Origin: an uncultured Chloroflexia bacterium
Lineage (GTDB): Bacteria > Chloroflexota > Anaerolineae > JAAYZQ01
Assembly (NCBI GenBank): GCA_963700285.1
Contig: CAVOXA010000010.1
Coordinates: 512,001-576,000, forward strand
DNA length: 64,000 nt
Direction: 5' to 3'
The stretch's first letter is position 1, and every line of letters starts with the position of its first letter. This document shows positions 1 to 32,035 of this stretch, piece after piece. The position numbers and the translations under genes were made by a program. A model generated the notes under the pieces. It did not search any database, was not told the origin of the DNA, and saw only the letters and a list, made by a program, of their open reading frames with translations.

Positions 1-78
1 CGGACGTACCGCTGGAGAACATTCAGGCATTCTACCGGGCGACCAGGGAGTACGGGACCTACCCTATACGAGCTGTGA
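1..78 (+). CDS. C-terminal end of a uroporphyrinogen decarboxylase (UROD)/MtaA-CmuA family protein, truncated by the window edge
   Basis: Frame 3 reads DVPLENIQAFYRATREYGTYP, the typical UROD-family C-terminus. The exact stop is uncertain: TGA 76-78 needs an indel, and the in-frame TAA is at 150-152. Confidence 0.55.
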   Translation, partial: RTYRWRTFRHSTGRPGSTGPTLYEL

Positions 79-93
79 GGACGGAGGGAACCG

Positions 94-1143
94 GTGACAA
101 CTTTGTTTGGACGACAATGGACACGCCAAGAACTGCTCACCTTCGTGGGTAATCATCTCACAGGTGTGCGGCATCCGGCCGGTCACGCTGGCCGATGGGC
201 CAGAACGGGGTGTCCGCGCCGCCGACGTGCGGACGGGTGATGGTCTCAACTTCACAGTCCTGCTTGACCGGGGGATGGACATCGGTCCCGCCGAGTACCG
301 GGGCATTCCCTTGGCCTGGATCTCTCCTACCGGCCCAATCTCGCCCGCCTTCTACGACCCGCGGGGGATTGGATGGCTGCGCACCTTTCACGGCGGGCTG
401 CTTACCACCTGCGGCCTGACCCAGACCGGCGTGCCGAACGTCGATTGGCGATGAAGATCTGGGGCTCCACGGCCGCATCTCACATACACCAGCCCGCCAG
501 GTGAGCTGCCAGGGGCGGTGGGAGGGCGACGAATACATCTTCTGGGTGGAAGGGCAAATGCGGGAAGTGAGTGTATTTGGTTACGATCTGCGCCTGACCC
601 GCCGCATAACGGCGATGTTGGGCCAGCCCAAGCTGACCATTGAGGATAGGGTGGAGAACATGGGCTACGAGCCTGCTCCCCACATGATCCTGTATCACTG
701 CAATATGGGCTTTCCCCTACTGAGGCCCTGCCAGCCGGCTGGTAGCCCCATCGCAGCGGTCGAAGCCCGGGATGACGTAGCCGCACAGGGCCTGGAGCAG
801 CATACCTCCTTTGAAGGCCCGACGCCCCACTATGCCGAACAGTGCTTCTTTCACAGCTTTGAGCCGGACTCGACGGGCCACGTCACAGTCGTCCAGCTCA
901 CCAACCCCGAGCTAGGGCTGGCCCTCCAACTGCGCTATCCGCCACCGGGAACTGCCCGAGATGGCGCAATGGAAACAGGTAGGGCAGGGGACCTACGTTC
1001 TGGGCTTGGAGCCGGCCAACTGCCGCGTTGAAGGGCGCTCAGCCGCCAGAAAGCGTGGGACGCTGGTAGAACTAGCCCCGGCGAGCACGTGCGATTACTA
1101 CCTGGAGATGACGGTCCTGGCCGGACAGGCAAGGGAGAGCTAG
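94..1143 (+). CDS. Aldose 1-epimerase-like (DUF4432) protein, split by several frameshifts
   Basis: GTG at 94 follows GGAGGG. Pieces in ORFs 107..454, 501..1031 and 961..1143 give DGPERGVR, DRGMDI, FHGGLLTTCGL, LHGRIS, MILYHCNMG and YVLGLEPAN. Confidence 0.8.
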
Positions 1144-1162
1144 ATGATACTGAGGAGATAGG

Positions 1163-2294
1163 ATGGCCGAACTGACGGGAGAGAGCGGCTGTTGCGGGTC
1201 TTTCACCAACAAGAGGTGGATCGTATCCCGGTTTCGCCCTTTATCCACGTCAACTATGTCAAAGAGTTTTTTGGCACACACGATGTCGACTGGGTGGCCA
1301 GGACGCCCGAAGTCTACCGGCACTTTGGCTTTGACCTGATCCATCGCAATTGTAGCCCCGAGTATGACGCCATGGGACCGGAAGGGCCGGATTGGCAGAT
1401 AGAGGATATGCCAGCAGGATGGCACGGGACGAGACCACTACGACTGACGGTTCATACGCCGGAAGGCGATCTGCGCTGCGGTCAAGCGCTTGCGCTGGAC
1501 CTACGAGTACGACGCCGAGAATTCGCGCTGTGCCGAGTACCCCATCAAAAGCGAGGCGGATTTTGACCTGCTGGTGCGCTACCAGCCGGATCCCCAACCG
1601 GCCGACGTGTCGGACATCCGGCGCGCCAAGGAGATCGTAGGCGACACGGGCATCGTCGCTCCCTGGATCCACGGCGCGTTCAACGTGCTGGCCTTCTACT
1701 ATCGGAAGCTGGATGACCTGCTGATGGACGCCATGCTCAATCCTGCTTTCTATGGGCGCATGATGGATCACTTTTTGCAGCGCTACATGACCTTTACCCA
1801 GACAACTCATCGATGCCGGCGCCGATGTCTTGAGCTATGCTGCCAATATTGCCAATGCCAAGCTGGTCAGCCCCCGTTTTTTCCGCGAGTATATCTGGCC
1901 CTACGAGAAGCGCTTCATCGATTTCATCCAGGGGCAGGGCGTCGCGGTGCTCTACCACAACTGTGGCTATGCCCGCAACCTGCTGTCGCTGCTGCCCGAG
2001 TTGGATATGCGGGCCTACGAATCGCTTACACCGCCGCCCTATGGCGACACGGTGCTCACCGATGCGGTGGACGCATTTGGCAGCCAGACCACCCTGTCGG
2101 GCAACATCGACCAACTCGATCTGCTGCGCAAGGGAACAGCGGACGAGATCGATTTGGCTGTCAAGCAAGTGCTGGATACGGTGCGCGGTCGCTGTCACTT
2201 TATCCTGGCCACGACCGACTATTTCAACGAGAACACGCCCCACGAAAAGATCCACGCCCTGGCGGATGCCGGGCGCAGATATGGAGGATTGTGA
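1163..2294 (+). CDS. UROD/MtaA-CmuA family protein, frameshifted
   Basis: ATG at 1163 follows GAGGAG. Motifs across ORFs 1192, 1490 and 1830: RERLL..VDRIPVSP, LVSPRFFREY, LYHNCG, LSGNIDQ, ENTPHEKI. Confidence 0.8.
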
Positions 2295-2298: not shown

Positions 2299-3087
2299 AT
2301 GAGACCCAATAAGATTCGAGCCCTTTTGGAAGCTGGAAAACCCACCATCGGGACCCACATTCACAGCACGTGGCCCTCTATCATCGAGGTTGTGGGACAC
2401 AGCGGCATGTTCGACTATATCGAGTTTGTGGCCGAGTATGCCCCCTTTGACCTGTACGCGCTGGACAACATCTGCCGCGCAGCCGAGCTGCATGATCTAT
2501 CGTCTATGATCAAGGTCGACCAGGAACCTCGCAGCTTTCTCGCCCAACGGGGCATCGGCTGTGGCTTTCAAAGCGTGCTGTTCGCTGACTGCCGCAGCGT
2601 TGAGGACACCCGGGAATGCGTGCGCGCCGTACGGCCCGAGACGCCGGAGGCGGGCGGATTGCACGGCGTTGGCATGCGTCGTGCCGCCTACATGGGCTAT
2701 GGAGGGACGCCGGACTATGTTCAGGCGCTCAAGGACATTGTCGTCGTACTGATGATCGAAAAGCAGGGGGCTGTCGATCACCTGGAGGAGATCCTGTCAG
2801 TGCCTGGCATTGACATGATCCAATGGGGGCCATCGGACTATTCCATGAGCGTCGGACGCCCCGGGGAAAGACAACACCCCAGTATCAAAGCAGCCGAGCA
2901 CAGGGTCATCGATATCGCCCTGAAGATGGGGATCCCGCCCAGGGCGGAGATCTCCAGCCCTGACGAGGCCAGATACTACCTGGACCTTGGCGTGGAGCAC
3001 TTTTGCATCGGCACGGATGTCATGATCCTCTACAACTGGTTCAAGGAGAACGGCGAGGAGCTGCGCAAAGTCATTTCGGATGCGTAA
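2299..3087 (+). CDS. HpcH/HpaI class II pyruvate aldolase family protein
   Basis: GKPTIGT, FDYIEFVAEY, VLMIE and GPSDYSMS motifs. ATG at 2299 is in frame with ORF 1837..3087. Confidence 0.88.
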   Translation: MRPNKIRALLEAGKPTIGTHIHSTWPSIIEVVGHSGMFDYIEFVAEYAPFDLYALDNICRAAELHDLSSMIKVDQEPRSFLAQRGIGCGFQSVLFADCRSVEDTRECVRAVRPETPEAGGLHGVGMRRAAYMGYGGTPDYVQALKDIVVVLMIEKQGAVDHLEEILSVPGIDMIQWGPSDYSMSVGRPGERQHPSIKAAEHRVIDIALKMGIPPRAEISSPDEARYYLDLGVEHFCIGTDVMILYNWFKENGEELRKVISDA

Positions 3088-4543
3088 ACAGGCGCAGTTG
3101 CTCAAGATCGTCACCGACGCCGAAGTGGATCGTATCCACGAGGCCAGTCTGGCCATCCTGGAAGAGATCGGCGTCCAGATCCCCAATACTCAGATCCTGC
3201 GCATGTTTGCGGATGCGGGAGCTGTGGTCGATTTTGAGCAGCAGATCGTCCAGATCCCTGCCAACTTGGTGGAGCAAGCACTGGCAGTTCTGCCCAAGGA
3301 CTTTACCGTAACGCCGGCCGACGGCGGGCCACCGATCCATCTGGGCGACGGGGACCTAAAGCTGAGCATGGATTGCTCCGATCAGATAGTGGAATTGAGC
3401 CAGGGCCGAAAACGCCGGGGAACCCAGGAAGACGTGGTGAAAGGTATCATGGTGGCCAACGCGTTGGAAAACGTACGGCTGGCCACCGGCTTTGTCCTGC
3501 CTTGCGAGGTACCCCAATCTGCCGGCGACGTGGCTGGCTATCAGCTCTTGTTCACCTATTCTCGGAAGGCCGTCGCCACCTGGATCTATTCTTCGCGTAG
3601 CGCGGACTATATCCTGGAGATGGCGCAGGTTGTGGCGGGCGGGGCAGAAGCGTTGAAGAGCAAAAAGCTGCTGACCTACTTTGCGGAGCCGGTCAGCCCC
3701 TTGCGCTACGCGCCCCATACCCTGGAGATCATGTGCAAGATGGCAGAGTACGAGTGTCCCATCTATTTGGGTCCGATGGTCACAGCCGGGGGCAGCGGGC
3801 CCGTCACTCTGGCCGGGACGCTCGTGCTGCACAACGCCGAGATCCTGCACGGGTTGACCTTGATCTATCTGCTCAACCCCAGGCAGCCGGTGATCTATTC
3901 TTGCCATGCCCACGTCCTCGACCTGAGGCGGGGCGTCATCCAGTATGGCGCGCCCGAGCAAGCACTCCTGGCTGCGGCCGCTTCACAGTTGGCCAAGAAG
4001 CAGGGGCTGGCGGTATGTGGCAACGTCATGCTGTCCGACTCGAACACGGCCGATTACCAGGCCGGGTTCGAAGCCGGAGCTACAGCCGCCTATGCCCTGG
4101 CCGCTGGCTGGGACATGCTCGGCTTTCTGGGATTCGGAACCCTGGGCGTGGTTGGCGCGGGTGTAGGTCATAGCCTGGAGATGGCCATCCTCCAGGACGA
4201 GGCGCTGTCCTTCCTCAAGAGGATGCTGGCATCCTTTGAGGTCAACGATGACACCCTGGCCCTAGATGTCATCCGGGAGGCTGGCATCGGCGGAAACTTT
4301 TTGGCACAACCCCACACGGCGAAGCACATGCGACACGAGCTGTGGCAGTCAGGAGGTATCTTCCCCCGGCTCGATTACACAGCCTGGGCCGAGGGTGGAC
4401 ACAAGACCGCACTCGACCGGGCTAGAGAACGGCTGGAAGAGGTCCAGCGGGATTATCCGCCAGAGCCAGTCCTGGACCCACACAAAGCGCGGTATTTGCT
4501 GGAGATCAGAGAACGGGCGGAAGCAGAAGCTACAGTAGAGTAG
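3080..4543 (+). CDS. Trimethylamine methyltransferase (MttB) family protein, non-pyrrolysine
   Basis: RIHEASLAILEEIG, PVSPL, GPVTLAGTL, DS..DYQAGFE and GGNFL..HT motifs. No in-frame TAG. Confidence 0.88.
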   Translation: MRKQAQLLKIVTDAEVDRIHEASLAILEEIGVQIPNTQILRMFADAGAVVDFEQQIVQIPANLVEQALAVLPKDFTVTPADGGPPIHLGDGDLKLSMDCSDQIVELSQGRKRRGTQEDVVKGIMVANALENVRLATGFVLPCEVPQSAGDVAGYQLLFTYSRKAVATWIYSSRSADYILEMAQVVAGGAEALKSKKLLTYFAEPVSPLRYAPHTLEIMCKMAEYECPIYLGPMVTAGGSGPVTLAGTLVLHNAEILHGLTLIYLLNPRQPVIYSCHAHVLDLRRGVIQYGAPEQALLAAAASQLAKKQGLAVCGNVMLSDSNTADYQAGFEAGATAAYALAAGWDMLGFLGFGTLGVVGAGVGHSLEMAILQDEALSFLKRMLASFEVNDDTLALDVIREAGIGGNFLAQPHTAKHMRHELWQSGGIFPRLDYTAWAEGGHKTALDRARERLEEVQRDYPPEPVLDPHKARYLLEIRERAEAEATVE

Positions 4544-4775: not shown

Positions 4776-5930
4776 ATGCTTATCAAGAACGGCAGGATAC
4801 TGCACTACAATCGGTTTGAAGCCAACAGCGATATGCGTGTAGAAGACAACCGGATCACGGCCATCGGCCAGGGCATGATGCCCGAACCCGGCGAGCAGGT
4901 TGTGGACGCAGCCGGGAACTATGTCCTAGCCGGTTTGATCGACCTGCACCATCATGGCATACGTCACGTACTTGCTCAGAACGACAGCCTGCTGGAATAC
5001 TCCCAGCTTCTGCTGGAGGTGGGTGTCACTGCTTGCGTCGCGACCCTGTCGGGTTCACCCGAGGATAACATCCAAGCCATGCAGCGGGGCCTGCAAGAGA
5101 CCGAGCGGTTCCGGTTGGCGCCGAACGTGATCGGCTTCCGCCCCGAGATCAGCTATATCGCCAAGACTGGAGCTGGCTCAGCCAACTCGCTGAGGCCCAT
5201 CACGGACGAGACAACGGAAGCCGTCTATGAAGGCGGCGAGGGATTCATTCGCATCTGGGACATATCGCCAGAGATGGCAGGGGCGATCCCGTTCATCCGT
5301 TGGGCCGCCAAGCAGGGCATCGTCACCAGCCTGGCCCATAGTTCCGCGACCGTCGAGGATACGCGGCGGGCTATCGAGGCGGGCATGAGCCTGGTCACTC
5401 ACTTCTACGACACCTTTGACGTGGCCGTTCAGACCGATCCGGGCGTGTATCCCGCCGGCCTAACCGATTGGCTCCAGATCGAAGACCGGATTACGGTGGA
5501 AATTGTCCCGGACGGGGTCCACGTACACCCTTACCTGGTAGAAAAGACCTTCCGCTGCAAGGGTATCAACCGCATCGCCCTGGTAACCGACGCGTCCAAG
5601 GGCTCGGGCAGTCCGCCGGGCATCTATGGCGGCCTCTACGAAGGCGTCGAGGTAGAGGTGACGGTTGATCGAGGAGTGAGGCGTACCTCAGACGACGTTT
5701 TGTCCGGTAGCGCGCTGACCCACCTTCAGGGCTTCCGCAACGTCATACAAAAGTTCGGCAAGTCGATGGTCGAGGCATCTATCCTATGCTCCCGCACTCC
5801 GGCCCGCGTTCTGGGAGAAACGAGCAAAGGCTACCTGGCAGCCGGAATGGACGCCGACATCATCATCTTGGACAATGATCTGAATCTCAAAGCGACCATC
5901 GTTGGCGGTAAGGTGCTCTACAGCGCATAG
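4776..5930 (+). CDS. nagA: N-acetylglucosamine-6-phosphate deacetylase-like amidohydrolase (divergent)
   Basis: GLIDLHHHG, LAHS, VTHFY, DGVH, VTDA and GMDADII motifs. Confidence 0.75.
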   Translation: MLIKNGRILHYNRFEANSDMRVEDNRITAIGQGMMPEPGEQVVDAAGNYVLAGLIDLHHHGIRHVLAQNDSLLEYSQLLLEVGVTACVATLSGSPEDNIQAMQRGLQETERFRLAPNVIGFRPEISYIAKTGAGSANSLRPITDETTEAVYEGGEGFIRIWDISPEMAGAIPFIRWAAKQGIVTSLAHSSATVEDTRRAIEAGMSLVTHFYDTFDVAVQTDPGVYPAGLTDWLQIEDRITVEIVPDGVHVHPYLVEKTFRCKGINRIALVTDASKGSGSPPGIYGGLYEGVEVEVTVDRGVRRTSDDVLSGSALTHLQGFRNVIQKFGKSMVEASILCSRTPARVLGETSKGYLAAGMDADIIILDNDLNLKATIVGGKVLYSA

Positions 5931-6010
5931 ACCAGGAGCGCAGGTTGCCGATGTTTGGAAACACCACGCCCACAGCACATTTTCCGCACGACGATGGTAA
6001 AGGAGGAACC

Positions 6011-6946
6011 ATGACCGATTGGCAGTACAGTCCATCCCCTTGGGTACCCTTTCGGGACCAAAAAGTCTTGGAACGAGTCAGGAAAATCAAACGTGAGGAT
6101 ATCACCAAGCATCCCAACCCGGAGTTCAAGATCCGGGTTGTCAAGGATGCCGACATCGAGTTTATCTGGGTCACCGACATGTTTTGGCGCATCAAATCCG
6201 CGGCTGATGCCGGGGAGAGATGTGTCCTGATCCTGCCCAACCCAGTTCCAACATACCGTCATGTGGCACGCCTCATCAATCAGTTCCGGGTCGACTGCTC
6301 CAACCTCGTTGTCTTTGCCATGGATGAGTATGCCAATGAGGATGGCATTATCACGCCAGAGACATGGCCCCAAAGCTTCATGTATGCCATGAAACACTAT
6401 CTCTTCTACGCTATTGACAAAGAGCTACGGCCGCCCGAGAGCCAAGTCGTCGGACCTACCAATAAGAATATCGACGACTATGGGCAGATGATTGCCGATG
6501 CGGGTGGGGCCGATATGTGCTACAGCGGACCTGGCTGGACGGGGCATCTGGCCTTTATCGAGCCCGATGCTCCTGAATTCGAGGCTGGGAGTTTGGAGGA
6601 GTGGATGGAGATGGGTACCCGGATTGTCACCCTGAGCCCATTCACTTTGGCCCAGAACTCCCTACACGGCAGTTTTGGCTACAGTGGAGACATTGCCCTG
6701 GTCCCACCCAAAGCGGCGACGATAGGCCCAGCCGAGGTCATTGCCTCCAAAAACCGGATAGATATCAGCGCCTTGACCATCCACGGCACCACGACCTCGT
6801 GGCAGCGGCTGATGACAAGACTCATCACCCACGGGCCGGTTACACCTCTGCTGCCGACATCTATCCATCAGCTACTGCGAACCGATTGCTACATTTCTGA
6901 AACGGCCGCCCAGGACATCGCGCCGGATTGGGACAAGGGATACTGA
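6011..6946 (+). CDS. Glucosamine-6-phosphate deaminase/isomerase (NagB) family protein
   Basis: AGGAGG RBS. FAMDEY, GHLAFIEP and GPVTPLLPTSI motifs. Confidence 0.75.
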   Translation: MTDWQYSPSPWVPFRDQKVLERVRKIKREDITKHPNPEFKIRVVKDADIEFIWVTDMFWRIKSAADAGERCVLILPNPVPTYRHVARLINQFRVDCSNLVVFAMDEYANEDGIITPETWPQSFMYAMKHYLFYAIDKELRPPESQVVGPTNKNIDDYGQMIADAGGADMCYSGPGWTGHLAFIEPDAPEFEAGSLEEWMEMGTRIVTLSPFTLAQNSLHGSFGYSGDIALVPPKAATIGPAEVIASKNRIDISALTIHGTTTSWQRLMTRLITHGPVTPLLPTSIHQLLRTDCYISETAAQDIAPDWDKGY

Positions 6947-7047
6947 GCGTTCTGGTCAAGGCAGGTTTTCCAGTAGATTTGCAGCAACTGGCGCTGAACG
7001 AGCCACTAGCAGGCGCCTCAGCAAGGCTGGGGCCAAGGGAAGGAATC

Positions 7048-8361
7048 ATGCACACCTTAGTAGCAGGCGCGGCATCGGTAGATATTTCCCCCCGGGATTC
7101 CCAGTTCCTTTATGGGTATCCACATGTCGAACGATACAGTACGGGCATCCACGATCCCCTTCTGAGTTCTGCGCTCTACCTTGGCGATGGACAGAGGGAG
7201 ATCATGTTCATTGCCAACGATATCATCTTTGTCAGCAAGGCGACCGCCCAACGGACCCGGGAACGGATCACACAGGCTACCTCCGTTCCCGGCGGCAATA
7301 TCATGATCTCGGCTACCCACACCCACTCCGGCCCCAAAACGGCGGACTATATCAGCAATGAACATGACCCCATTGTCCCTTGTGTCGACCCAGATTACCT
7401 CCAGCTTTTTGAAGACGGGATCGTACAGGCTGCGGTAGAGGCCTATCACCGGGCGCGCCCGGCCCAAGCCGGGCTAGCGGTGGCAGACTGCGCAGGCGTG
7501 GGAACTAACCGGCGGGATCCGTTGGGGCCCGCGGACTGTAACGTTCCTGTCTTGATGGTCAGAGCTACGGACGACGGGTCGAATATCGCCTGCATGGTAG
7601 TCTATTCAATGCATCCCACCGTGTTGCACGAAGACTCCAAACTCGTCAGCGGCGATTTCCCAGCCATGACAAAACAGTACCTACAGGAGGAAGTGCTGGG
7701 GCAGGAATGCCCGGTGCTGTATCATACGGGCCCGGAGGGCAACCAGAGCCCCCGGCATGTCACCGGCGCGAATACTTTTGCCGAGGCCGAGCGCCTGGGC
7801 AACCTGCTGGGCCACACCATTGCCCAAGTCCTGCCACAGATCCAATATACTTCTAGCCTGGAAGTACAGAGCGCCCAACGCTTTGTCGATCTGCCCCGGA
7901 AAAAGTTTCCCCCACTCCCCAAAGCTGAGGAGAAGGAGAAACGCGCAAGGGAGAAGCTGGAACACCTGCGCCAGACCAACGCACCCCGCCAGGAAGTTCG
8001 AACCGCGGAGGTCGACTGGTTCGGTGCAGAAGAGACCTTGACCCTGGCCCAAGCTGCCCAGCAAGGACAGCTGGAGGCCTACTACCAGATGTGCCTGCCA
8101 GCCGAAGTCCAGGTCCTAAAGGTCGGCCCCTGGGCTTTTGTGGGCTGGCCAGGTGAAATGTTTGTTGAATTCGGCCTGGCGGTCAAGGCAAAGGCCCCGG
8201 ACACCTATGTCATTGCCCTGGCCAACGGCGAATTGCAGGGCTACGTTGTCACAGAAGAAGCAGCCATAGAGGATGGCTACGAGGCATCCAACGCCATTCT
8301 GGGTCCATCAAGCGGCGGGACACTGGTCGCTACTACATTCGAACTCTTGGATATTCTGTGA
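7048..8361 (+). CDS. Neutral/alkaline ceramidase N-terminal domain amidohydrolase
   Basis: GIHDPL, ISATHTHSGP, MHPTVL, GPEGNQSP and PGEMFVEFG motifs. Confidence 0.8.
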   Translation: MHTLVAGAASVDISPRDSQFLYGYPHVERYSTGIHDPLLSSALYLGDGQREIMFIANDIIFVSKATAQRTRERITQATSVPGGNIMISATHTHSGPKTADYISNEHDPIVPCVDPDYLQLFEDGIVQAAVEAYHRARPAQAGLAVADCAGVGTNRRDPLGPADCNVPVLMVRATDDGSNIACMVVYSMHPTVLHEDSKLVSGDFPAMTKQYLQEEVLGQECPVLYHTGPEGNQSPRHVTGANTFAEAERLGNLLGHTIAQVLPQIQYTSSLEVQSAQRFVDLPRKKFPPLPKAEEKEKRAREKLEHLRQTNAPRQEVRTAEVDWFGAEETLTLAQAAQQGQLEAYYQMCLPAEVQVLKVGPWAFVGWPGEMFVEFGLAVKAKAPDTYVIALANGELQGYVVTEEAAIEDGYEASNAILGPSSGGTLVATTFELLDIL

Positions 8362-10164: not shown

Positions 10165-10195
10165 ACCAGCGAGGCAGTAGTTGGAGATGAATGCT

Positions 10196-12700: not shown

Positions 12701-12841
12701 CCATCCTCCCGCAGGCTCGGTGCAGAGAGCACTATCATGGAGAAAAGCCAGGAGATTCAAGCAGCGAGCCAGAATTGGGGCCAGTCTGTGGGAGGGTCGC
12801 CGTAGAGGGGACATGTCGCCCAGGAGAATCGGAGCGAGAGC

Positions 12842-17370: not shown

Positions 17371-17396
17371 ATCCGGCTATGGAGGAACAGCACCAC

Positions 17397-17468
17397 ACCC
17401 TCAGTAACGGCGAGGCGCTGAGGGTAGTGACACTTTCGGCTGGGGCGGGGGTGCCCCAGTCGAAAGTG
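17397..17468. other. Two adjacent intergenic hairpins
   Basis: ACCCTCAG..CTGAGGGT, and CACTTTCGGCTGGGGC..GCCCCAGTCGAAAGTG (16-bp stem with one G-U). No U-tract. Confidence 0.6.
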
Positions 17469-17526
17469 GAAGCCGTCCATGATCTCGATATCTATGTCTG
17501 GCCAGGGTGAATGAGGGGTAACAACC

Positions 17527-21528: not shown

Positions 21529-21578
21529 CAACATCCCGCAAGTTATCCAGGACTGGAACCAGAACTTGCGGGATATTG
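21529..21578. other. Intergenic inverted repeat
   Basis: CAACATCCCGCAAGTT...AACTTGCGGGATATTG, 15/16 complementary. Confidence 0.6.
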
Positions 21579-21601
21579 TCAATAATGGGAAAGAGGTTCA
21601 C

Positions 21602-24135: not shown

Positions 24136-25371
24136 GTGAACCCACGGCAGTTGCGCAGAACCAAATCCCGAGATCTCGTCCTCATGCTGGTGCTCGTGTT
24201 CATCGCTGGACTCTGCGAATACAGCGTCGGTGTCCTGGTGCCTCTGGCAGCCGATGCCAGGGGAGCCAGCAATACCTGGGTTGGGGTTCTGGTTGGTGCG
24301 CCACAATTGATGCTGGTTCTAACCATGATCCCCAGCACCCACTGGGTGACATCTTGGCGACGGAGGACCGTATTGGCTTTGGGCACTGGGCTGCAAGGCG
24401 TGGGCGCGCTAGGCCACGCTGCGATCCCGAACCCTTCGGGGATGCTCTTGGCCCAACTGTTCCTGGGACTGGGTCTGGCCCTCTTTTGGCCCGCGTACCT
24501 CAGCTACTTTGGCTCGATTGTGCATGGGGACGCAGCCAACGAATGGCAGGGCCGCCGTGCAGCGGTGGAAGGAGTAGCCCTCCTGGCCGCGCCTGTATGC
24601 GCAACCATTCTGGCCCAAGTACTGGGCTACGGGAGTACCTTCGCGGCGATTGGCTTGATCACCGTCACCATTGCCCTGACCCCGCTGCTGCTCATGACGC
24701 CGGAAACGCGTCCCCTGAGCCACCGGACCCCCAGAACCGGCCTGACCGTCACGGCCCGCCAAGTTGGCCACATGCTCAAGCGTCCGGCCTTGCTGATGAT
24801 CTTTGGCCTGATCTCCATCGGAACGGTCCTGGTCATTCGGATGGGAGGTCCTTTTCTGACGCTCTACCTATCGAGTCTTGGCTACAGCCAGGTGGCCGTT
24901 GGACTGCTACTCAGTCTGCAATCTCTCAGCAAGATATTCTTTCAAACAGGATATGGCCGAATGGCCCGGCGGGTACGACACGTCTATCTCCTGACACTGT
25001 CCATTCTATTTACAGCCCTGACCAATATGCTCCTGCCAGCTTTCACCCTGCCTGTCCTGCTGATTGCCCTCTTGCTGGTCAGTGGCGCCTTCCTGGCGCC
25101 CTACAATCCAGGCATGGTTAGCCTGGTGCATGGCCAGTTTTCTGAAGGGGAACGGGATCTAGGTATGGCCCTGTGGATCACCACCTTGAGCTTGACTGGC
25201 TGGTTGGCAGCGCCAGCGCTGGGCGCTCTGAGCGATGCGGTGGGCCTGGCTGCCATGTTCTCCATCGCCAGTTTCTTGGTCATCCTGACGACGATTACCC
25301 TGGTAGGGTCTGCCCGATGGATGGCGCAACAGGAGAATGCGCCCGGCGAAATGGCAAAGCTTTGGCGTTGA
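24136..25371 (+). CDS. MFS transporter
   Basis: About 12 hydrophobic segments in 411 aa, with MFS-like loops. Confidence 0.85.
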   Translation: MNPRQLRRTKSRDLVLMLVLVFIAGLCEYSVGVLVPLAADARGASNTWVGVLVGAPQLMLVLTMIPSTHWVTSWRRRTVLALGTGLQGVGALGHAAIPNPSGMLLAQLFLGLGLALFWPAYLSYFGSIVHGDAANEWQGRRAAVEGVALLAAPVCATILAQVLGYGSTFAAIGLITVTIALTPLLLMTPETRPLSHRTPRTGLTVTARQVGHMLKRPALLMIFGLISIGTVLVIRMGGPFLTLYLSSLGYSQVAVGLLLSLQSLSKIFFQTGYGRMARRVRHVYLLTLSILFTALTNMLLPAFTLPVLLIALLLVSGAFLAPYNPGMVSLVHGQFSEGERDLGMALWITTLSLTGWLAAPALGALSDAVGLAAMFSIASFLVILTTITLVGSARWMAQQENAPGEMAKLWR

Positions 25372-26446: not shown

Positions 26447-26555
26447 CCCTGCCGCCGTCAACAGGAGGGCTGGAGATTCTGGCCACAATCGTGACCGATT
26501 CACAGGGTAGGATTCTCATGTTGAGCGACAAATCATTTATGAAAGGAAAACTTTG

Positions 26556-27371
26556 ATGAGTGACTTTGACCGAGCTGCCAACAGGACGCTTCGACCGAAC
26601 CGAGTATTGGACCGGATACGGGCTGGTAAATATGTGCTGACCGGCAGCACCACACCCTATCCCTCACCCAAGATTTCCGAGATGATGGGGCTTGTCGGCT
26701 TTGACTGCGTCTGGATCGACATGGAGCACCAGGATTTTTCCTGGGACCAGGCATTCAACATGTGCCTGGCCGCCCGCGCCTCAGGCATGGAGCCGATGAT
26801 CCGCGTACGAAAGGAGGGGGATCAGTCATTCTTCCGGGTCTTTGAGGCTGGGGCAACTGGTATCATGGTGCCCCATGTGCGTACGATGGAGGAGGCTGAG
26901 TGGGCGCTCAAATTCTGCCGCTTTGCGCCCGTCGGGCTGCGGGGCATGGACGGCGTGGAAGCGGCGGCCAAATACAGCCTGGCGCCCATGCAGGAATACA
27001 TAGACTGGACGCTGCGTGAGACCTTTGTCCTTTTCCAGGTGGAAGACAAAGAAACCTTGGACATCCTGGACGATATCGCAGAAATGGATGGCCTGAACGG
27101 GCTCTTTTTTGGACCCGGTGACATGTCGCAATCCCTGGGCATCCCTCTGCAGTTCGATCATCCCCAGATGCACGAAGCGCGCAAACTGGTGGCCGCAACC
27201 GCCAAGAAACACGGCAAGTTCTGGGGCATGCCCGTGGGAAATGCAGCCCAGGCGGCAAAGCTGAATAGAGAAGAGGGCGCCCAGTTCTTTGCTTGCGGCG
27301 CAGCCATCATTATCTTGCTGGCAGGCTACCAGTCGATCCGGGACGACTTTGATCAAGTAATGGGACCGTAG
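26556..27371 (+). CDS. HpcH/HpaI aldolase family protein
   Basis: GFDCVWIDMEH, GIMVPHV, FQVE and FGPGDMS motifs. Confidence 0.9.
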   Translation: MSDFDRAANRTLRPNRVLDRIRAGKYVLTGSTTPYPSPKISEMMGLVGFDCVWIDMEHQDFSWDQAFNMCLAARASGMEPMIRVRKEGDQSFFRVFEAGATGIMVPHVRTMEEAEWALKFCRFAPVGLRGMDGVEAAAKYSLAPMQEYIDWTLRETFVLFQVEDKETLDILDDIAEMDGLNGLFFGPGDMSQSLGIPLQFDHPQMHEARKLVAATAKKHGKFWGMPVGNAAQAAKLNREEGAQFFACGAAIIILLAGYQSIRDDFDQVMGP

Positions 27372-27422: not shown

Positions 27423-28460
27423 ATGGTCAACAGGGAGATCAAGATCGGCATCGTCGGTTCGGGATTTATGGGGCGAACCTACGCCGAAACGACGACAAAG
27501 TACAACCGTCACGCCCGCCTGATCGCCGTCGCGGGCGGCACGCGAGCAGAGAGACTGGCCGCCGACTATGACGTGGACCTTGAACCTTCGGTGGAGGATC
27601 TGATGGCCCGCGACGATGTGGATGCCGTCATCCTGACCCCTCCCGAGTCGGTCCACCTGGAACACACGCGGATGGCAGCCGCCGCCGGCAAGCATGTACT
27701 GGCCGAGAAGCCCATGGCGCCCGATGTAGCCCAGTGCCAGGCCATGATCGACGCCTGTCGGGACGCTGGCGTCACACTCATGGTCGTTCAGAGCCAACGC
27801 TTTCGCGGTGTACACCAGCGGGCCAGAGGACTGTTGGACGAGGAGCGCATCGGTGAGGTGTGGCAGGTGCGCCACTGGTCCAATTTTCCCATCGAATGGT
27901 CAGTACCAGTGGTCGGCGACCGGCCCTGGTACGCAGACCCGGAGGGCGGGCTATTCCTGGGCCAATGCGTACACAACTTTGATATGATGCGCTGGCTGGT
28001 GGGCAGCGAGGCCAACCAGGTCTATGCCCACGTCACCTCCCACGGTGACCACGGCCTGCCTAATCTGAGTGTGATGGCCCAGGTCGAGTTCCAGAACGGA
28101 GCGACGGGCCAGCTATGGGTCTGCCTGGAGTTGCCTGGCGTAGGATTTCCTCAGAGCCGGTTTCACTCCCAGGTCGTTGGTAGCAAGGGACTGCTGGACT
28201 TTGACGGGTATACACACCTGGACCTGGCAGTCGACGGTGCCTGGGAACGTGTCTGGGAACAGCCTGGCTTTGACCCGCTGGATCCCATGGATCCGGTGCG
28301 CCTGGAATCATATACCGCCCAGAACCAGGCGTTCATCGACAGCATCCTCGAGGGACAGCCACCGCCCGTCAGCGGTGAGGATGGCCGCGCCGCGGTGGAA
28401 TTGTGCCAGGCCAGCCTGCTTTCGGCGCGCAGCGGCCAGGCCATCACCCTGCCCCTCTGA
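27423..28460 (+). CDS. Gfo/Idh/MocA family oxidoreductase
   Basis: GIVGSGFMG, GKHVLAEKPM and HNFD motifs. Confidence 0.92.
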   Translation: MVNREIKIGIVGSGFMGRTYAETTTKYNRHARLIAVAGGTRAERLAADYDVDLEPSVEDLMARDDVDAVILTPPESVHLEHTRMAAAAGKHVLAEKPMAPDVAQCQAMIDACRDAGVTLMVVQSQRFRGVHQRARGLLDEERIGEVWQVRHWSNFPIEWSVPVVGDRPWYADPEGGLFLGQCVHNFDMMRWLVGSEANQVYAHVTSHGDHGLPNLSVMAQVEFQNGATGQLWVCLELPGVGFPQSRFHSQVVGSKGLLDFDGYTHLDLAVDGAWERVWEQPGFDPLDPMDPVRLESYTAQNQAFIDSILEGQPPPVSGEDGRAAVELCQASLLSARSGQAITLPL

Positions 28461-28485: not shown

Positions 28486-29499
28486 GTGAAGGCTGTACTG
28501 CTTGACCGTGCTTCAGAGGTAAGGGTGGTCGAGATCCCCAAGCCAACTTTCGGGGAACAGGACGTGCTGGTCCAGGTCGGCGCCTGCGGAATCTGCGCCT
28601 CAGACCTGCATATGGACCAGATCAAGTTGAGGGACCCGCCCTATCCCCTGGTACCCGGGCACGAAGTGGCGGGGACCGTCGTCCACACGGGCCCGGCAGT
28701 CCGGAATGTGCACAGGGGCGAGGGGGTGGTGGTGCAGCCCGCCGTCGCCTGTGGTGTCTGCCGCCCGTGCCGGCGGGGCCATTCCAATCTCTGTCTGGAC
28801 GCGCAGGTTGTCGGACTGCATCTTCCTGGCGGCTTTGCCCAATACGTGGCCGTCCCGGGCGGCAATGCCTATCCCACCGGCGGGCTGCCAGATGACGCCG
28901 CCGCCTGTACGGAACCCCTGGCCTGCGCATTGCACGGTATGCAGCGCCTGGCGCCCCGCCCGGCTGATGGGGTACTCATCTTTGGGGCTGGTACCATCGG
29001 CTTGTTCTTCTTGCAGTTGGTGCGCCAGCAGTGCGCCGGGCCGATCACGGTAGTCGACCTGAGCCCGTGGCGTCTGGAGATCGCAGGCAAGCTAGGCGCG
29101 GACCAGGTTATCGCAGCGGATGGTACCGAGGGAGAGAAACTGTTCCGGCAGCAGCTACTGGGCTTTGACTGTGTGGTCGATGCCACGGGAGTACCTGCCG
29201 TCATTGAGGCAGCGTACCACTACCTGGCCCCCGCAGCCAGGCTACTGCTGCTCGGCTCGCCGCCTACAGCCGCGAGCATAGCCATCCAGCCGCGCCGGAT
29301 ACAACGGCAGGATGCGACAGTGGTTGGAGCCTTCAGTTTTGGCCACGAGTTCGCCGCGGCATTGGAGCTACTACAGTCCGGATGCGTACAGACCGGGCAC
29401 ATCGTGACCCACCAGTACCCGTTGGAGGGCTTTCCTGAGGCTTGGCAACGGGCCTCCTCGGGCCAGGATTGCATCAAGGTACAGATTGTGCCTGGGTGA
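28486..29499 (+). CDS. Zn-dependent alcohol/sugar dehydrogenase
   Basis: GICASD, GHE, CGVCRPC...C and GAGTIG motifs. Confidence 0.92.
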   Translation: MKAVLLDRASEVRVVEIPKPTFGEQDVLVQVGACGICASDLHMDQIKLRDPPYPLVPGHEVAGTVVHTGPAVRNVHRGEGVVVQPAVACGVCRPCRRGHSNLCLDAQVVGLHLPGGFAQYVAVPGGNAYPTGGLPDDAAACTEPLACALHGMQRLAPRPADGVLIFGAGTIGLFFLQLVRQQCAGPITVVDLSPWRLEIAGKLGADQVIAADGTEGEKLFRQQLLGFDCVVDATGVPAVIEAAYHYLAPAARLLLLGSPPTAASIAIQPRRIQRQDATVVGAFSFGHEFAAALELLQSGCVQTGHIVTHQYPLEGFPEAWQRASSGQDCIKVQIVPG

Positions 29500-29605
29500 A
29501 GGAGCAAGGGATGGGAGTCTTTCTCATCGACATGATTTTTATCGCATCTGCGACGCGCGATCCAATTCCCTGGTAGCAGCGACGGCCTCGAGGAGGTTTA
29601 TATCC

Positions 29606-30961
29606 ATGCCCAAATCGGCTCGGAAGCAATCTCTGATCAGGGATGCCCAACACCTGTTTGAAGCACGGGGGCACGACGAGGCAGACCGCCAGGCCCCTAC
29701 CATCGTCCGCGAGGCGGGTGGCATTCGGGTGACTGACGTGGAGGGCCAGAGTTATCTCGACGGCCTTTCAGGTATCTGGACGGTAAACATCGGCCACGGC
29801 AACCGGGCGGTGGTCGAGGCCATGACCGAACAGTTGCAGCGCTTCAGCTTCAGTTGGCCCGAGGGGACCCTCAGCGAAGCGGCCATACGGCTGGGGCGCC
29901 TGTTGGCCGAGATCACCCCGCCCGAGCTGACCACCGTCCTACTGGTCAACAGCGGGTCCGAGGCCACCGAGGCGACACTCAAGCTGGCGCGCCAATACTG
30001 GCTGCAAACTGGGCATCCCCGCAAGACCAAGATCCTGGGCCGTTACCTGTCCTGGCATGGCTCGACGATGGGCGCCCTGAGCATGGGCGGCACCACACCC
30101 TGGAAGGAACCGTTCGGACCATTCCTGGCGGAATGCCGCCACGTGGCCCCGCCCTACTGCTACCGCTGCCCCTACGGCCTGACCTACCCGGCCTGCGACC
30201 TGGCCTGCGCGCGGGTCATCGAAAATGTAATCGAGTGGGAAGATCCCGAGACCGTGGCTGCCATCATTCTGGATCCGGTCATGGTTTCGGCCGGCATCCT
30301 GGTACCACCACAGGGGTACCTCACAACAGTACGCGAGATCTGCCAACGCACCGGGACGCTTCTTATCTTTGACGAGGTGATCACCGGCTTTGGACGCACC
30401 GGTGAGATGTTCGCCATGGACACCTTTGATGTGGTGCCCGACATTGTGGCCCTGGCCAAGGGCATGAGTAGCGGCTACGCTCCCCTGGCCGGTATCGTCG
30501 CTGCCGAGCGGGTCGCAGGCGAATTCTGGGGCGCGGGCAAGGCTTTCCACCACGGCCATACTTTTGGCGGAAACCCGGTCTCGGCGGCGGCCGGCGTGGC
30601 CAATATCACCCAGATCCTGGAGGGCGGCCTGATCGATAATGCCAGGCGAGTGGGGGTCTATCTCCAGCAGCAAGGGCAGGTACTGCGGAAACAGCCTATC
30701 GTGGGTGATGTACGCGGGGTCGGCCTGATCCTAGGCACCGAGTTGGTGGCAGATCCCGGGAGCCGGGAGCGCTTCCCAGCCCAGGTGGAGCCGGGTCTCA
30801 GAATCCAGGCTGCGGCAAAGCAGCGTGGCTTGCTGCTGCGCGCCAGCCCCAATTGGATAGCCCTGGCCCCGCCCCTGATCACGAGAGAAAGCGAGATCGA
30901 CGAGATGCTAAGCATCGTCCAGGCCAGCATTGAGGAGGTACAAGCTCAAATCTTGCTCTGA
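29606..30961 (+). CDS. Class III PLP aminotransferase (omega-amine/BioA-like)
   Basis: AGGAGG RBS. SGSEATE, WHG, DEVITGFGRTG, LAKG and HGHTFGG motifs. Confidence 0.92.
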   Translation: MPKSARKQSLIRDAQHLFEARGHDEADRQAPTIVREAGGIRVTDVEGQSYLDGLSGIWTVNIGHGNRAVVEAMTEQLQRFSFSWPEGTLSEAAIRLGRLLAEITPPELTTVLLVNSGSEATEATLKLARQYWLQTGHPRKTKILGRYLSWHGSTMGALSMGGTTPWKEPFGPFLAECRHVAPPYCYRCPYGLTYPACDLACARVIENVIEWEDPETVAAIILDPVMVSAGILVPPQGYLTTVREICQRTGTLLIFDEVITGFGRTGEMFAMDTFDVVPDIVALAKGMSSGYAPLAGIVAAERVAGEFWGAGKAFHHGHTFGGNPVSAAAGVANITQILEGGLIDNARRVGVYLQQQGQVLRKQPIVGDVRGVGLILGTELVADPGSRERFPAQVEPGLRIQAAAKQRGLLLRASPNWIALAPPLITRESEIDEMLSIVQASIEEVQAQILL

Positions 30962-30971
30962 GCCCACTCCA

Positions 30972-30998
30972 GTAAGGCAAGATGGCATCTTGCCCTAC
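30972..30998. repeat. REP-like palindrome
   Basis: GTAAGGCAAGATGGCATCTTGCCCTAC, same family as the copies at 4580 and 4678. Confidence 0.7.
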
Positions 30999-31087
30999 GG
31001 AGAGCAATCAAGTCACGGACTTGGTACTGAGAGCATCCTGCAGCTTGGTCCAATGCCGGTTATGCTACCCTGAGGAGAGTGAGAATC

Positions 31088-32035
31088 ATGGCACAAATCA
31101 TCACGGTCTGCGGCCCGATAGCGCCGGACGAACTGGGCTTCACGCTGCCGCACGAACATATCTTTATCGATCTGACCGCCTTTCCTGGCGGCATCACGAT
31201 GCACGGCCTGGACGGATTTATCGACCCGGTGCGGCACACGGACATCATGATCCAGGAAGTGAGAGCCTTCCAAGCTGCTGGAGGCAGCAGCATCGTCGAC
31301 GTCACCTGCCGGAATATGGGGGGGGATACGCGGGCGCTCAAGGGTGTGGCCGAGGCGACCGGCGTCCACATCATCGCAGGCTGCGGCTGGTACCGGGAAT
31401 CCTACATGGATCATGACCTCTACTACCGGTCCACGAACGAGCTGGCGGAGAGTCTGATCAACGAGATCGAACATGGCCTGGGCGACACCGGCATCCGGCC
31501 GGGCATCCTGGGTGAGATCGGCGTGAACTATAACCACTACCACCTGTCGGCCAAGGAGGAGCGCTGTCTGCGGGCCGTGGCCAAGGCGCAGCAGCATTCG
31601 GGCCTGGCCGTCACCACCCACCTGCCCAAAGCCAGGGTTGCCCACGAGGTCCTGGACGTTCTGGGTGAACATGGCGTTCCGGCGGAGCGCGTCATCCTTG
31701 GGCACTCGGATGCCTACAAGGATGCTGGCTACCATGCCTCGCTGATGCAACGAGGGGCCTACGTGCAGTATGACAATATCGGTTCGACCCTGGACGCGCC
31801 CTGGGGCGAGTCAGAGTTGCTCGACCTGATGGTCGAATTGCTGGGCCAGGGCTACGTGGAGCGGGTCCTGCTGTCACAAGACATCTGTGGTCGCAGCCAT
31901 ATGAAGTATTATGGCGGCCGGGGCTTTGACTATATCGCCACCGAGTTCCTGCCCTTGCTCCGGGAGCGGGGTATCAGCGAGGAGCAGATCCAGATCATGA
32001 CGGTGGAGAATCCCAAGCGGGTTCTCGCAGTGTAG
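31088..32035 (+). CDS. Phosphotriesterase-homology (PHP/PLL) protein
   Basis: TLPHEH, GEIG (Glu type), TTH, GHSD, LSQD and ENPKR motifs. Confidence 0.9.
   Translation: MAQIITVCGPIAPDELGFTLPHEHIFIDLTAFPGGITMHGLDGFIDPVRHTDIMIQEVRAFQAAGGSSIVDVTCRNMGGDTRALKGVAEATGVHIIAGCGWYRESYMDHDLYYRSTNELAESLINEIEHGLGDTGIRPGILGEIGVNYNHYHLSAKEERCLRAVAKAQQHSGLAVTTHLPKARVAHEVLDVLGEHGVPAERVILGHSDAYKDAGYHASLMQRGAYVQYDNIGSTLDAPWGESELLDLMVELLGQGYVERVLLSQDICGRSHMKYYGGRGFDYIATEFLPLLRERGISEEQIQIMTVENPKRVLAV

Follow-up and report, generated by a model that had tools for sequence, protein, structure and literature searches.

A 32-kb same-strand gene block in an Anaerolineae genome: a probable mosaic of modules on a conserved amino-sugar core

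Several described systems lie close to parts of the locus treated here. The catabolism of N-acetylglucosamine 6-phosphate (GlcNAc-6-P) relies on NagA and NagB together with NagK or a phosphotransferase system (PTS), and sialic acids are degraded by the Nan proteins. Neutral and alkaline ceramidases (structures 2zws and 4wgk; PF04734) and the non-pyrrolysine MttB methyltransferases, such as MtgB and its relatives, are further points of comparison. The Thermotoga inositol route uses IolG, IolM and IolN, and FAH-type diketo-hydrolase routes handle deoxy-sugar acids. Finally, AprG of apramycin biosynthesis (structures 9c95 and 9lfi), an atypical transaldolase, cleaves GlcNAc or N-acetylgalactosamine, keeps the two-carbon unit as a Schiff base and then adds it to an aldehyde, as outlined in PMC13707489. 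Genes resembling parts of each of these systems occur in, or upstream of, the first 32 kb of a 64,000-nucleotide stretch of DNA from an uncultured Chloroflexia bacterium (the window: positions 512,001 to 576,000 of contig CAVOXA010000010.1, assembly GCA_963700285.1, class Anaerolineae). An initial annotation of the window took the block at 1-32035 for a 32-kb catabolic island that suggested an undescribed anaerobic pathway.

The block is here read as, probably, a mosaic of separately gained modules on a conserved core, whose predicted task is the deacylation and deamination of a phosphorylated N-acyl amino sugar, and not as one 30-gene pathway. In the best-supported picture it has three layers. 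The first is a conserved, uncharacterised core for an N-acylated amino sugar: a kinase, two amidases, a deaminase-like enzyme and a DeoR regulator. The second consists of lineage-specific feeder modules that are tied to the core in several Anaerolineae, namely a NanA-like lyase, a flavoprotein of the fumarate-reductase type (Frd-like), aldo-keto reductases (AKR), a DegT aminotransferase, an iron-containing alcohol dehydrogenase (Fe-ADH) and a first HpcH aldolase (HpcH_1). The third is genus-specific and includes MttB, a creatininase-family hydrolase, hyp307, a UROD-like protein and everything at 19.3-32 kb. All mechanisms proposed below derive from family membership. The genome (G000) is assembled in 22 contigs (7.05 Mb, 89% complete); window position 1 is C10:512001, and negative values lie upstream of the window. 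The block forms the last 32 kb of a longer same-strand run, C10:456444-544035, whose end is window 32035 and which holds about 73 genes in about 87 kb. The core genes with fixed positions are:

-18929 to -17406, + strand: FGGY kinase, XylB-like (361 bits, cut-off 380)
4776-5930, + strand: NagA-like amidohydrolase
6011-6946, + strand: NagB-like protein (NagB*), outside Pfam; the listed open reading frame (ORF) is 5945-6946 and the true start 6011
7048-8361, + strand: ceramidase-like amidase (Cer), 437 aa

Like GlcNAc-6-P catabolism, this core has adjacent NagA-like and NagB-like genes, a sugar kinase and a DeoR regulator of the sugar-phosphate type, and it keeps the deaminase motifs. Unlike in that pathway, the NagA-like protein reaches only 178.5 bits against TIGR00221 (cut-off 225.65) and NagB* 57.4 bits against TIGR00502 (cut-off 236.9), with no match to PF01182. 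In addition, the kinase belongs to the FGGY family, with no ROK or PTS gene among the scanned called genes of the run, and the set includes an extra ceramidase-like amidase. NagB* has no Pfam match at E 0.01, and a genome search with PF01182 finds two other, ordinary genes and misses it. Its relatives number 4,134 at E 1e-20 or better; none of the 120 listed has a Pfam domain, and these 120 are annotated as hypothetical by NCBI and as glucosamine-6-phosphate (GlcN6P) deaminase by JGI. A profile of five orthologues does match solved GlcN6P deaminases (best E 1.8e-10). The MDEY and GHLAFIEP (GH.AF.EP) stretches of NagB* align to MDEY and GHIAFNEP of chains 7lqn and 3hn6, and both motifs, which we take to hold the catalytic Asp, His and Glu of GlcN6P deaminase, are invariant in all five orthologues.

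The start of Cer was placed at residue 41 of ORF 6928-8361, from the ORF of a sister genome (G001) and from matches in relatives. As in neutral and alkaline ceramidases, the N-terminal catalytic region is present: PF04734 is matched at 60.9 bits (cut-off 32.1) over profile positions 5-229 of 509, which is the catalytic part only, and the THTHSGP stretch aligns with that of 2zws (E 1.9e-5). In contrast to neutral ceramidase, which has about 650 aa, Cer is short, shows no C-terminal domain among its Pfam matches and scores 32.6 bits against the NCBIfam ceramidase model, whose cut-off is 1200. Because Cer is found in sugar operons of many phyla, a soluble N-acyl amino sugar is its likelier substrate. 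In the proposed route, the sugar would be imported by the upstream Opp-type or sugar ABC systems and then phosphorylated by the XylB-like FGGY kinase. The N-acyl groups would be removed by the NagA-like amidohydrolase and by Cer, and NagB* would yield a keto-sugar phosphate and ammonia, while the DeoR protein may sense a sugar-phosphate intermediate. In the literature searched, no paper pairs 'ceramidase' with 'NagB' and no description of this gene set was found, in line with the remark of the initial annotation that no described pathway was recognised.

The core is known far beyond this genome. An alignment of NagB* was compared with one genome per species, which gave 298 relatives. Counts use the best 80 loci, among them G001 and four genomes already in other comparisons, and cover genes within 10 kb of NagB* at tblastn E 1e-15 or better, with one best query per stretch. 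In all 80 loci NagB* is 57-86% identical to the query. The sequence records place the loci in eight phyla or more (Chloroflexota, Planctomycetota, Verrucomicrobiota, Spirochaetota, KSB1, Hydrogenedentota, Sumerlaeia, Lentisphaerota, Bacteroidota, Actinomycetota and others). The neighbours of NagB* are:

Cer: 51 of 80 loci (37 at 50% identity or more)
NagA-like: 50 of 80
FGGY kinase: 42 of 80
Class III aminotransferase: 35 of 80
DeoR: 23 of 80
Short-chain dehydrogenase (SDR) like that at -43432: 19 of 80
hyp217: 18 of 80
HpcH_2-like: 14 of 80
GFO like that at -54535: 11 of 80
Creatininase: 4 of 80
MttB: 1 of 80
hyp307: 1 of 80
PTE (phosphotriesterase family), FAH1, FAH2, FAD_oxidored, hyp338 and MFS: 0 of 80 each

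When the count is confined to the 40 loci whose flanks reach 5 kb or more in both directions, Cer is present in 29, the NagA-like gene in 27, the FGGY kinase in 26 and the class III aminotransferase in 22. The arrangement varies between loci. For instance, an Opitutae locus (L102) has FGGY and Cer on one strand, and DeoR, a class III aminotransferase, a DhnA-type class I aldolase, the NagA-like gene, NagB*, an SGNH esterase and an SSF symporter on the other. In L034 and L038, Opp-type genes abut NagA, while about 19 kb of other genes lie between them in G000, which speaks for accretion. The core of NagB*, short ceramidase-fold amidase, NagA-like protein and FGGY kinase marks a sugar-nitrogen salvage route with a substrate not yet assigned. 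Glycan degraders that have it include Chloroflexota, Planctomycetota, Verrucomicrobiota and Spirochaetota. To name that substrate would annotate thousands of genes and would bear on the recycling of amino-sugar nitrogen in sediments and soils.

Within the class, the same genes can be followed at closer range. The sample comprised 150 genomes, three of them from the window's own family. Cer orthologues (61-64% identical) occur in five of the 150, in three other families and in none of the three own-family genomes. A DNA-level search of the other 29 relatives returned single-gene matches only. In the window's own family, an orthologue of NagB* was found in one of the 22 other genomes, the sister genome G001, and this patchy spread suggests transfer or repeated loss. 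G001 also carries a second NagB-like copy, 73% identical, beside DeoR-like and creatininase-like genes (L044, G001:C4:304153-325085); G000 has one copy. The genes of the left 19 kb other than the core trio are:

-994 to 71 (3' end at 1-71), + strand: UROD-like; frameshifted relative to the intact 360-aa copy of G001
94-1140, + strand: DUF4432; spread over three frames, intact with 347 aa in G001
1177-2291, + strand: UROD-like; spread over three frames, intact with 375 aa in G001
2299-3087, + strand: HpcH/HpaI-type aldolase 1 (HpcH_1); 73% identical orthologue in G088
3080-4543, + strand: MttB-superfamily protein without pyrrolysine; open 487-aa frame, PF06253 260.8 bits over residues 3-481
8389-9192, + strand: creatininase-family hydrolase; IolN model 85.1 bits, cut-off 245
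9241-10164, + strand: hyp307, an all-beta protein; C-terminal half resembles a VirK-family structure
10181-11473, + strand: Fe-ADH; 78% identical orthologue right after Cer in G088
11507-12700, + strand: UROD/MtaA-like protein; MtaA/CmuA model 64.6 bits, cut-off 235.4
12830-13100, + strand: DegT remnant of about 90 codons, frameshifted; whole (411 aa) in G001
13167-14078, + strand: aldo-keto reductase 1
14129-15355, + strand: DegT/DnrJ/EryC1-family sugar aminotransferase
15413-16321, + strand: aldo-keto reductase 2 (AKR2); 64-67% identical orthologue right after Cer in G060 and G102
16462-17370, + strand: NanA-like DHDPS-family lyase; 67-68% identical orthologues near the core in G060 and G102
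17527-19218, + strand: Frd-like flavoprotein (fumarate-reductase/L-aspartate-oxidase-like); 68% identical orthologues beside the NanA-like gene in G060 and G102

The start of HpcH_1 was set at the ATG at 2299 from a 261-aa match in G088, the listed ORF from 1837 overlapping the UROD gene out of frame.

Four further Anaerolineae genera have the trio of NagA-like, NagB* and Cer genes, next to genes that in G000 are dispersed over the run. In G088 the row reads DeoR, FGGY, MR_MLE (an enolase-superfamily gene), UROD, HpcH_1, NagA, NagB*, Cer, Fe-ADH and the start of a DegT gene, at 63-80% identity; it has no ABC systems, MttB, creatininase or hyp307. G060 and G102 have (NagA, NagB*,) Cer, AKR2, the GFO of -46071, the SDR of -43432, the NanA-like gene and the Frd-like flavoprotein, at 52-76% identity. 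In G052, FGGY and hyp217 precede the trio, which is followed by GFO and SDR, and in G141 an Opp-type system lies directly ahead of the trio. Genes up to 60 kb apart in G000 therefore adjoin one another in other families, which argues for a functional link among the window's left 19 kb and parts of the upstream run. Further orthologues of the upstream run (DHDPS, M20, Zn-ADH, BNR_2, GFO, UROD, a fusion protein, the MttB of -44877, SDR and AKR) are found on the same 90-kb contig of G088, at 68-85% identity and in a different order. The NanA-like lyase, the Frd-like flavoprotein, the AKRs and DegT may feed nonulosonate-type or deoxy-amino sugars into the core. As in Nan sialic acid catabolism, a NanA-like lyase is present in the block and a BNR_2 gene in the run, with NanE and a BNR sialidase-like gene beside the run. 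By contrast with Nan, the lyase scores 239.8 bits against PRK04147 (cut-off 281) and 212.4 against TIGR00683 (cut-off 382), NanE is outside the run on the other strand, and no ROK-type NanK or NanT was seen among the scanned genes.

These neighbourhoods bear directly on the proposal of the initial annotation, by which all of the roughly 30 genes would demethylate, deacylate, deaminate, oxidise and aldol-cleave an N-methylated or N-acylated amino sugar, nonulosonate or aminocyclitol. The genes are tightly spaced on a single strand, their order is kept in G001 and in metagenome contigs L126 and L137 (85-92% identical), and C-N-cleaving families are many. Moreover, a homologue of AprG ties the block to aminoglycoside chemistry, and a second MttB-like gene of the run (-44877) is kept at 73% identity beside GFO, UROD, SDR and AKR in G088. 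Nevertheless, MttB, the creatininase, hyp307, the UROD at 11507 and the 19.3-32 kb part are not regular companions of the core: they occur in no more than 4 of the 80 loci, with best-match counts of one each for MttB and hyp307, four for creatininase and zero for PTE, FAH, FAD_oxidored, hyp338 and MFS. Likewise, HpcH_1, NagA, NagB*, Cer and Fe-ADH are all kept in G088, where MttB, creatininase and hyp307 are lacking. With further objections from the corrinoid, inositol and hyp338 comparisons given below, a single 30-gene pathway is very improbable. The amino-sugar theme of the same annotation, on the other hand, held well, as the trio shares a run with FGGY and DeoR and is conserved well beyond G000.

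The right-hand 13 kb (19.3-32 kb) behaves differently from the core. Its genes are:

19333-20142, + strand: KdgD-like DHDPS-family protein; apparently 5'-shortened, 269 aa against 301 aa in G001
20188-21519, + strand: FAD_oxidored (PF12831) flavoprotein
21566-22636 and 22640-23308, + strand: two FAH-family hydrolases (FAH1, FAH2); best model 2,4-didehydro-3-deoxy-L-rhamnonate hydrolase, 71.8 bits, cut-off 500
23329-24117, + strand: SDR
24136-25371, + strand: MFS transporter; largely missing in metagenome contig L137
25430-26446, + strand: hyp338, AprG homologue
26553-27371, + strand: HpcH/HpaI-type aldolase 2 (HpcH_2)
27423-28460, + strand: GFO/IolG-like dehydrogenase; models under cut-offs
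28486-29499, + strand: Zn-dependent dehydrogenase (Zn-ADH), IolM/Tdh-like; models under cut-offs
29486-30961, + strand: class III aminotransferase; 26% identical to that of the cross-phylum cassette, non-orthologous
31079-32035, + strand: phosphotriesterase-family (PTE), lactonase-like hydrolase; last gene of the run

None of these genes, and neither the UROD at 11507, MttB, creatininase nor hyp307, has a close orthologue in the class sample, where the best identities are 30% for hyp338, 39% for FAD_oxidored and 38% for PTE. MttB, creatininase, hyp307 and the 19.3-32 kb part are found together only in G001 and three metagenome contigs (77-92% identical). A metagenome scan with hyp338 gave 17 loci. 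L126 and L137 carry the Frd-like gene, the KdgD-like gene, FAD_oxidored, both FAH genes, SDR, hyp338, HpcH_2, GFO and Zn-ADH in this order, with the MFS gene between SDR and hyp338 mostly missing, and L138 (77%) carries hyp338 followed by HpcH_2. In L124, L127, L128 and L130 (62-84%, at least 3 kb of flank each), orthologues of hyp338 lie amid other neighbours, such as racemase, Amidohydro_2, ABC, UROD and M20 genes or unrelated genes, which again speaks against one pathway. Homologues of FAD_oxidored and PTE (29-34% identical) adjoin in two other Anaerolineae families, at L117 (G076:C26:4214-6142) and L118 (G091:C99:165-3319).

The similarity of hyp338 to solved AprG is full-length, with residues 14-329 against 10-321 of chain 9c95_A (100.3 bits, E 1.1e-27). 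By sequence, hyp338 is thus a homologue of this atypical transaldolase, which is a new assignment. Unlike AprG, hyp338 lies among catabolic-type genes (MFS, SDR, FAH, HpcH) and in no aminoglycoside cluster, and the neighbourhoods of its orthologues vary. It may cut or transfer the two-carbon unit of an N-acetylhexosamine, and the homology hints at a possible catabolic use of a reaction so far known solely in antibiotic biosynthesis. The FAH-FAH-SDR group could form a diketo-hydrolase route for a keto-deoxy sugar acid, and GFO, Zn-ADH, the aminotransferase and PTE might oxidise, transaminate and open a lactone. The GFO, Zn-ADH and creatininase families recall the Thermotoga-type inositol route, and the FAH and SDR families the FAH diketo-hydrolase routes. 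Compared with those routes, scores are far under the cut-offs (IolG 158.5 against 355, IolM 200.3 against 450, IolN 85.1 against 245 and FAH 71.8 against 500 bits), and the creatininase gene is 18 kb away from the GFO/Zn-ADH pair. The suggestion of an aminocyclitol substrate, which depends on these IolG-, IolM- and IolN-like genes, is accordingly not supported, and their scores count against the single pathway as well. As for hyp307, its model is all-beta (predicted local distance difference test, pLDDT, 88.6), and no PDB sequence match and no Foldseek match at E 0.001 was obtained. Residues 176-306 resemble a VirK-family structure in VIA-align (Z 8.7, root-mean-square deviation 3.4 over 103 residues), a match that confers no function.

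The MttB-like protein raises the question of its partner. Like MtgB and other non-pyrrolysine MttB methyltransferases, it has a full-length MTTB domain and no in-frame TAG. In contrast to MtgB-type systems, there is no corrinoid protein within 163 kb, and MttB is outside the conserved core. The genome has 59 MttB, 52 UROD and 42 B12-binding (PF02310) matches, and none of these 42 lies in C10:456444-544035; the B12-binding domains nearest to the run's two MttB genes are 163 kb and 211 kb away. For comparison, the 32 near-full-length MttB genes of G000 include 8 that have such a domain at a distance of 5 kb or less and 14 that have one at 20 kb or less. As to an MtaA- or MtgA-type partner, which would pass the methyl group from the corrinoid to an acceptor, UROD-like genes are present, and the MtaA/CmuA model gives 64.6 bits against its cut-off of 235.4. 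The protein at 3080-4543 reaches 333.9 bits in NCBIfam (cut-off 525) and at best 41% identity in the class sample. A quick-search tree of 30 MttB paralogues was unresolved (14 of 27 inner branches open), and the trait of a corrinoid gene within 20 kb was not clustered on it, 70 of 500 shuffles being as low. Thus, a separate corrinoid-free clade is neither supported nor refuted. Since the B12-binding domain is distant and the tree unresolved, the N-demethylation step of the initial annotation is backed by the family name alone; the missing corrinoid partner also argues against the single pathway. No role can be assigned here to the MttB-like and UROD-like proteins, and such genes without a corrinoid partner call for caution before they are annotated as methylamine metabolism. 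Elsewhere in the genome, a 42-gene same-strand run at C14:384171-430912 holds at least 10 MttB-family and several corrinoid-protein genes, and has the look of the genome's true region for methylamine or betaine methyltransferases.

The extent of the run was obtained by gene calling with a genome-trained codon model and by Pfam scans of 60 kb upstream. In the window, the ORF listing and the Pfam and NCBIfam scans give 28-30 genes at 1-32035, all on the + strand, so the count of about 30 co-oriented genes is correct. The gene caller returned 38 + 35 genes for the whole run, split by a single minus-strand call that overlaps a + strand UROD ORF (Pfam match 146 bits) and is spurious. The left edge of the 32-kb block is the window edge and no biological boundary, whereas the right edge is real because the strand switches there and collinearity with G001 breaks off. 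The island of the initial annotation therefore stands in its strand and its right end and falls at its left end, the run continuing to 87 kb: its left side is a window-edge artefact and its right side a genus-specific patchwork. In 300 simulations of a first-order strand model, with a probability of 0.81 for the same strand, 73 genes in a row were never reached (0 of 300); the largest run was 59, and the longest averaged 36 genes, so that the 35-gene part by itself is ordinary. Another 74-gene run, on the - strand at G000:C10:307122-388330, is the longest of the genome by these gene calls. Foreign composition was considered as a sign of origin and rejected, the block's content of guanine plus cytosine (GC), 0.57-0.64, giving no signal against the contig's 0.59-0.65. 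Scans for promoters and terminators over 1-35900 found sites no commoner than in shuffled sequence and none in the larger gaps.

Perhaps the run is a leading-strand or gene-dense region that has gathered unrelated paralogues, with a functional link limited to the small core. In its favour, the families concerned are large in G000 (59 MttB, 52 UROD, 39 SDR, 22 Zn-ADH, 18 class III aminotransferases and 17 GFO), the genome has 14 same-strand runs of at least 30 genes, and whole genes were gained or lost inside the block between G000 and G001. Against such neutral accretion, contig C10 has no overall strand bias that would account for the run (798 + and 922 - genes), and genes distant in the run are adjacent in other families. 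Furthermore, paralogous mini-clusters repeat the same family mixes at C14:585813-599280 (AprG-like, UROD, FAD_oxidored, HpcH, DHDPS), C14:931734-940754 (UROD, Cer-like, class III aminotransferase) and C10:872782-875399 (HpcH, creatininase, DHDPS), and the FAD_oxidored and PTE homologues adjoin in G076 and G091. Neutral accretion is thus unlikely, and modules on a conserved core remain the preferred reading.

The sister genome shows how the block changes within a genus. G001 (same genus, 7.3 Mb, 20 contigs) is collinear with G000 at 86-92% nucleotide identity from at least -20488 to 32049, and no further alignment was found past 32049 within the 23 kb of G001 examined. It carries a full DegT gene where G000 retains about 90 codons, and a 347-aa GNAT between the NanA-like gene and the flavoprotein, of which G000 retains 36 codons (17379-17486). 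It also has an additional 160-aa GNAT before GFO and two M55 D-aminopeptidases before the class III aminotransferase. Gene order, whose lack of conservation in any relative the initial annotation had named as a refutation, is conserved in the same-genus genome and, for the left 19 kb, piecewise in other families. Frameshifts affect the two left-hand UROD genes (-994..71 and 1177-2291) and DUF4432 in G000, and other genes in G001, namely NagA, DegT, FAH1, SDR, hyp338, Zn-ADH and the aminotransferase. In G000, the three broken genes are adjacent (-994..2291, C10:511006-514291), each over two or three frames, and none is broken in the following 30 kb. Metagenome contigs from three runs, 90-95% like the window, differ from G000 by one-base gaps at at least 12 places within 724-1802, and one metagenome contig over 1931-3120 shows 72 substitutions and no gap. 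By this comparison with short-read contigs, G000 is the odd one out in a patch of about 2 kb at the left end, which is either a local assembly error or recent decay.

Several points weigh against a mosaic of modules on a conserved core. The absence of the right half elsewhere rests on 150 class genomes, many of them incomplete, and on one metagenome scan. Should the frameshifts in G000 and G001 be genuine and not due to assembly, a part of the locus would be in decay. Outside Anaerolineae, identity to the kinase and the NagA-like protein of G000 is no more than 24-35%; clear orthology across phyla is limited, by sequence comparison, to NagB* and Cer. In the NCBIfam scan of the block's 30 proteins, none reaches a curated cut-off among the matches listed, which for some proteins are the best 25, and the names used for the block are therefore family names and not functions. 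Finally, with an 87-kb run of unusual length and tight packing, many genes of which have orthologues in shuffled order on one 90-kb contig of G088, a wider functional unity is possible.

The upstream part of the run is of interest in this respect. Its genes, all before window position 1, are as follows:

Run start, in order: DHDPS, GFO, UROD, Amidohydro_2/aminotransferase fusion, DUF4432, Amidohydro_2, GFO, second MttB, SDR, AKR
Next: sugar ABC system, Zn-ADH, Ldh_2, Amidohydro_3 (D-aminoacylase-like), 2-oxoacid dehydrogenase E1/E2 components
Next: DegT, PIG-L, two SGSH-like sulfatases, BNR_2, M20, Zn-ADH
Next: DeoR, FGGY kinase, UROD, Opp-type ABC system
Next: enolase-superfamily protein, two URODs, second sugar ABC system, fucose-isomerase-like protein

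The initial annotation had noted no regulator and one transporter, which is right for 1-32035 and wrong for the run, where a DeoR regulator, one Opp-type and two sugar ABC systems lie upstream. Genes related to amino sugars are also found there: a BNR sialidase-like gene, a PIG-L deacetylase, two N-sulfoglucosamine-sulfohydrolase-like sulfatases and another DegT. Immediately before the run, on the opposite strand, are NanE, a UROD gene and a second BNR sialidase-like gene. The enolase-superfamily gene (MR_MLE; -10533..-9424), flanked by the Opp-type transporter and by UROD genes, is 73% identical to its orthologue in G088 and scores above the cut-off of menC_lowGC_arch (244.5 against 200.65 bits), a family which includes N-acylamino-acid racemases too.

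With this gene content, the whole 87-kb run might be a necromass locus that dismantles the sugar and peptide parts of bacterial envelopes, with N-acyl amino sugars, nonulosonic acids, deoxy-amino sugars and D-amino-acid peptides as targets. The BNR sialidase-like genes, NanE, the NanA-like lyase, PIG-L and three DegT genes in or beside the run would fit, as would the Opp-type transporter, the M20 peptidase, the D-aminoacylase-like Amidohydro_3 protein, the enolase-superfamily protein with its menC_lowGC_arch score, and the two M55 D-aminopeptidases and two GNATs of G001. Nevertheless, its basis is family names throughout, the scanned genes include no MurQ, AnmK, NagZ or muropeptide amidase, and the sulfatases suggest sulfated glycans of eukaryotes or algae instead, which makes this an improbable account. 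A related and bolder proposal, tentative and rather doubtful, is that the run is dedicated to dismantling decorated amino sugars of microbial envelopes (for example di-N-acyl deoxy-amino sugars or nonulosonates) by undescribed enzymology. If true, this would include an N-deacylase of ceramidase fold for soluble sugars, a NagB-like deaminase that is deeply conserved and has a new substrate, an AprG-like catabolic C2-C3 cut of N-acetylhexosamines, and MttB-like and UROD-like proteins working without a corrinoid carrier.

One more upstream protein may belong with the core. The 217-aa hyp217 (-15448..-14795), found near NagB* in 18 of the 80 loci, has invariant CPSKG, DYC.HC and HEHNH.GQC motifs, rich in Cys and His, and no Pfam match. 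Its model is of middling quality (pLDDT 71) and has a weak likeness to Bet3/V4R/PoxR-type sensor or ligand-binding folds (best E 3.4e-3, template-modelling score, TM, 0.37-0.49), and the protein could bind a metal or a ligand as a partner of the core.

The remaining particulars of the initial annotation agree with the gene inventory. The C-N-cleaving families (MttB, NagA-like, NagB-like, ceramidase-like, creatininase, DegT and class III aminotransferase) are where it had placed them, and so are four pyruvate-type aldolases (two HpcH and two DHDPS, NanA-like and KdgD-like), two FAH and three UROD-like proteins (-994..71, 1177-2291 and 11507-12700). Where it counted at least seven oxidoreductases, eight are present: Fe-ADH, two AKR, two FAD enzymes, SDR, GFO and Zn-ADH.

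The rest of the window has other contents. Right past the end of the run, at 32400-34034 on the - strand, is an ORF of 544 aa that scores well as coding sequence and lacks a Pfam match; collinearity with G001 ends at this point. A GC-rich patch at 38001-40000 (0.684 against about 0.60) surrounds an RNase_H_2/TPR gene (37976-39031, - strand) and ORFs without a family. From 40767 to 52337 lie hypA, B, F, D and E, two HycI-type proteases and a four-subunit NiFe hydrogenase set (Fer4_22, NAD/FAD-binding, Oxidored_q6 and the large subunit), in which a frameshift divides the large subunit over 50488-51210 and 51044-51784. Finally, a piece of a non-ribosomal peptide synthetase (condensation end, AMP-binding and PP-binding) occupies 61927-63998 on the - strand, in two overlapping frames at 61927-63174 and 62739-63980.

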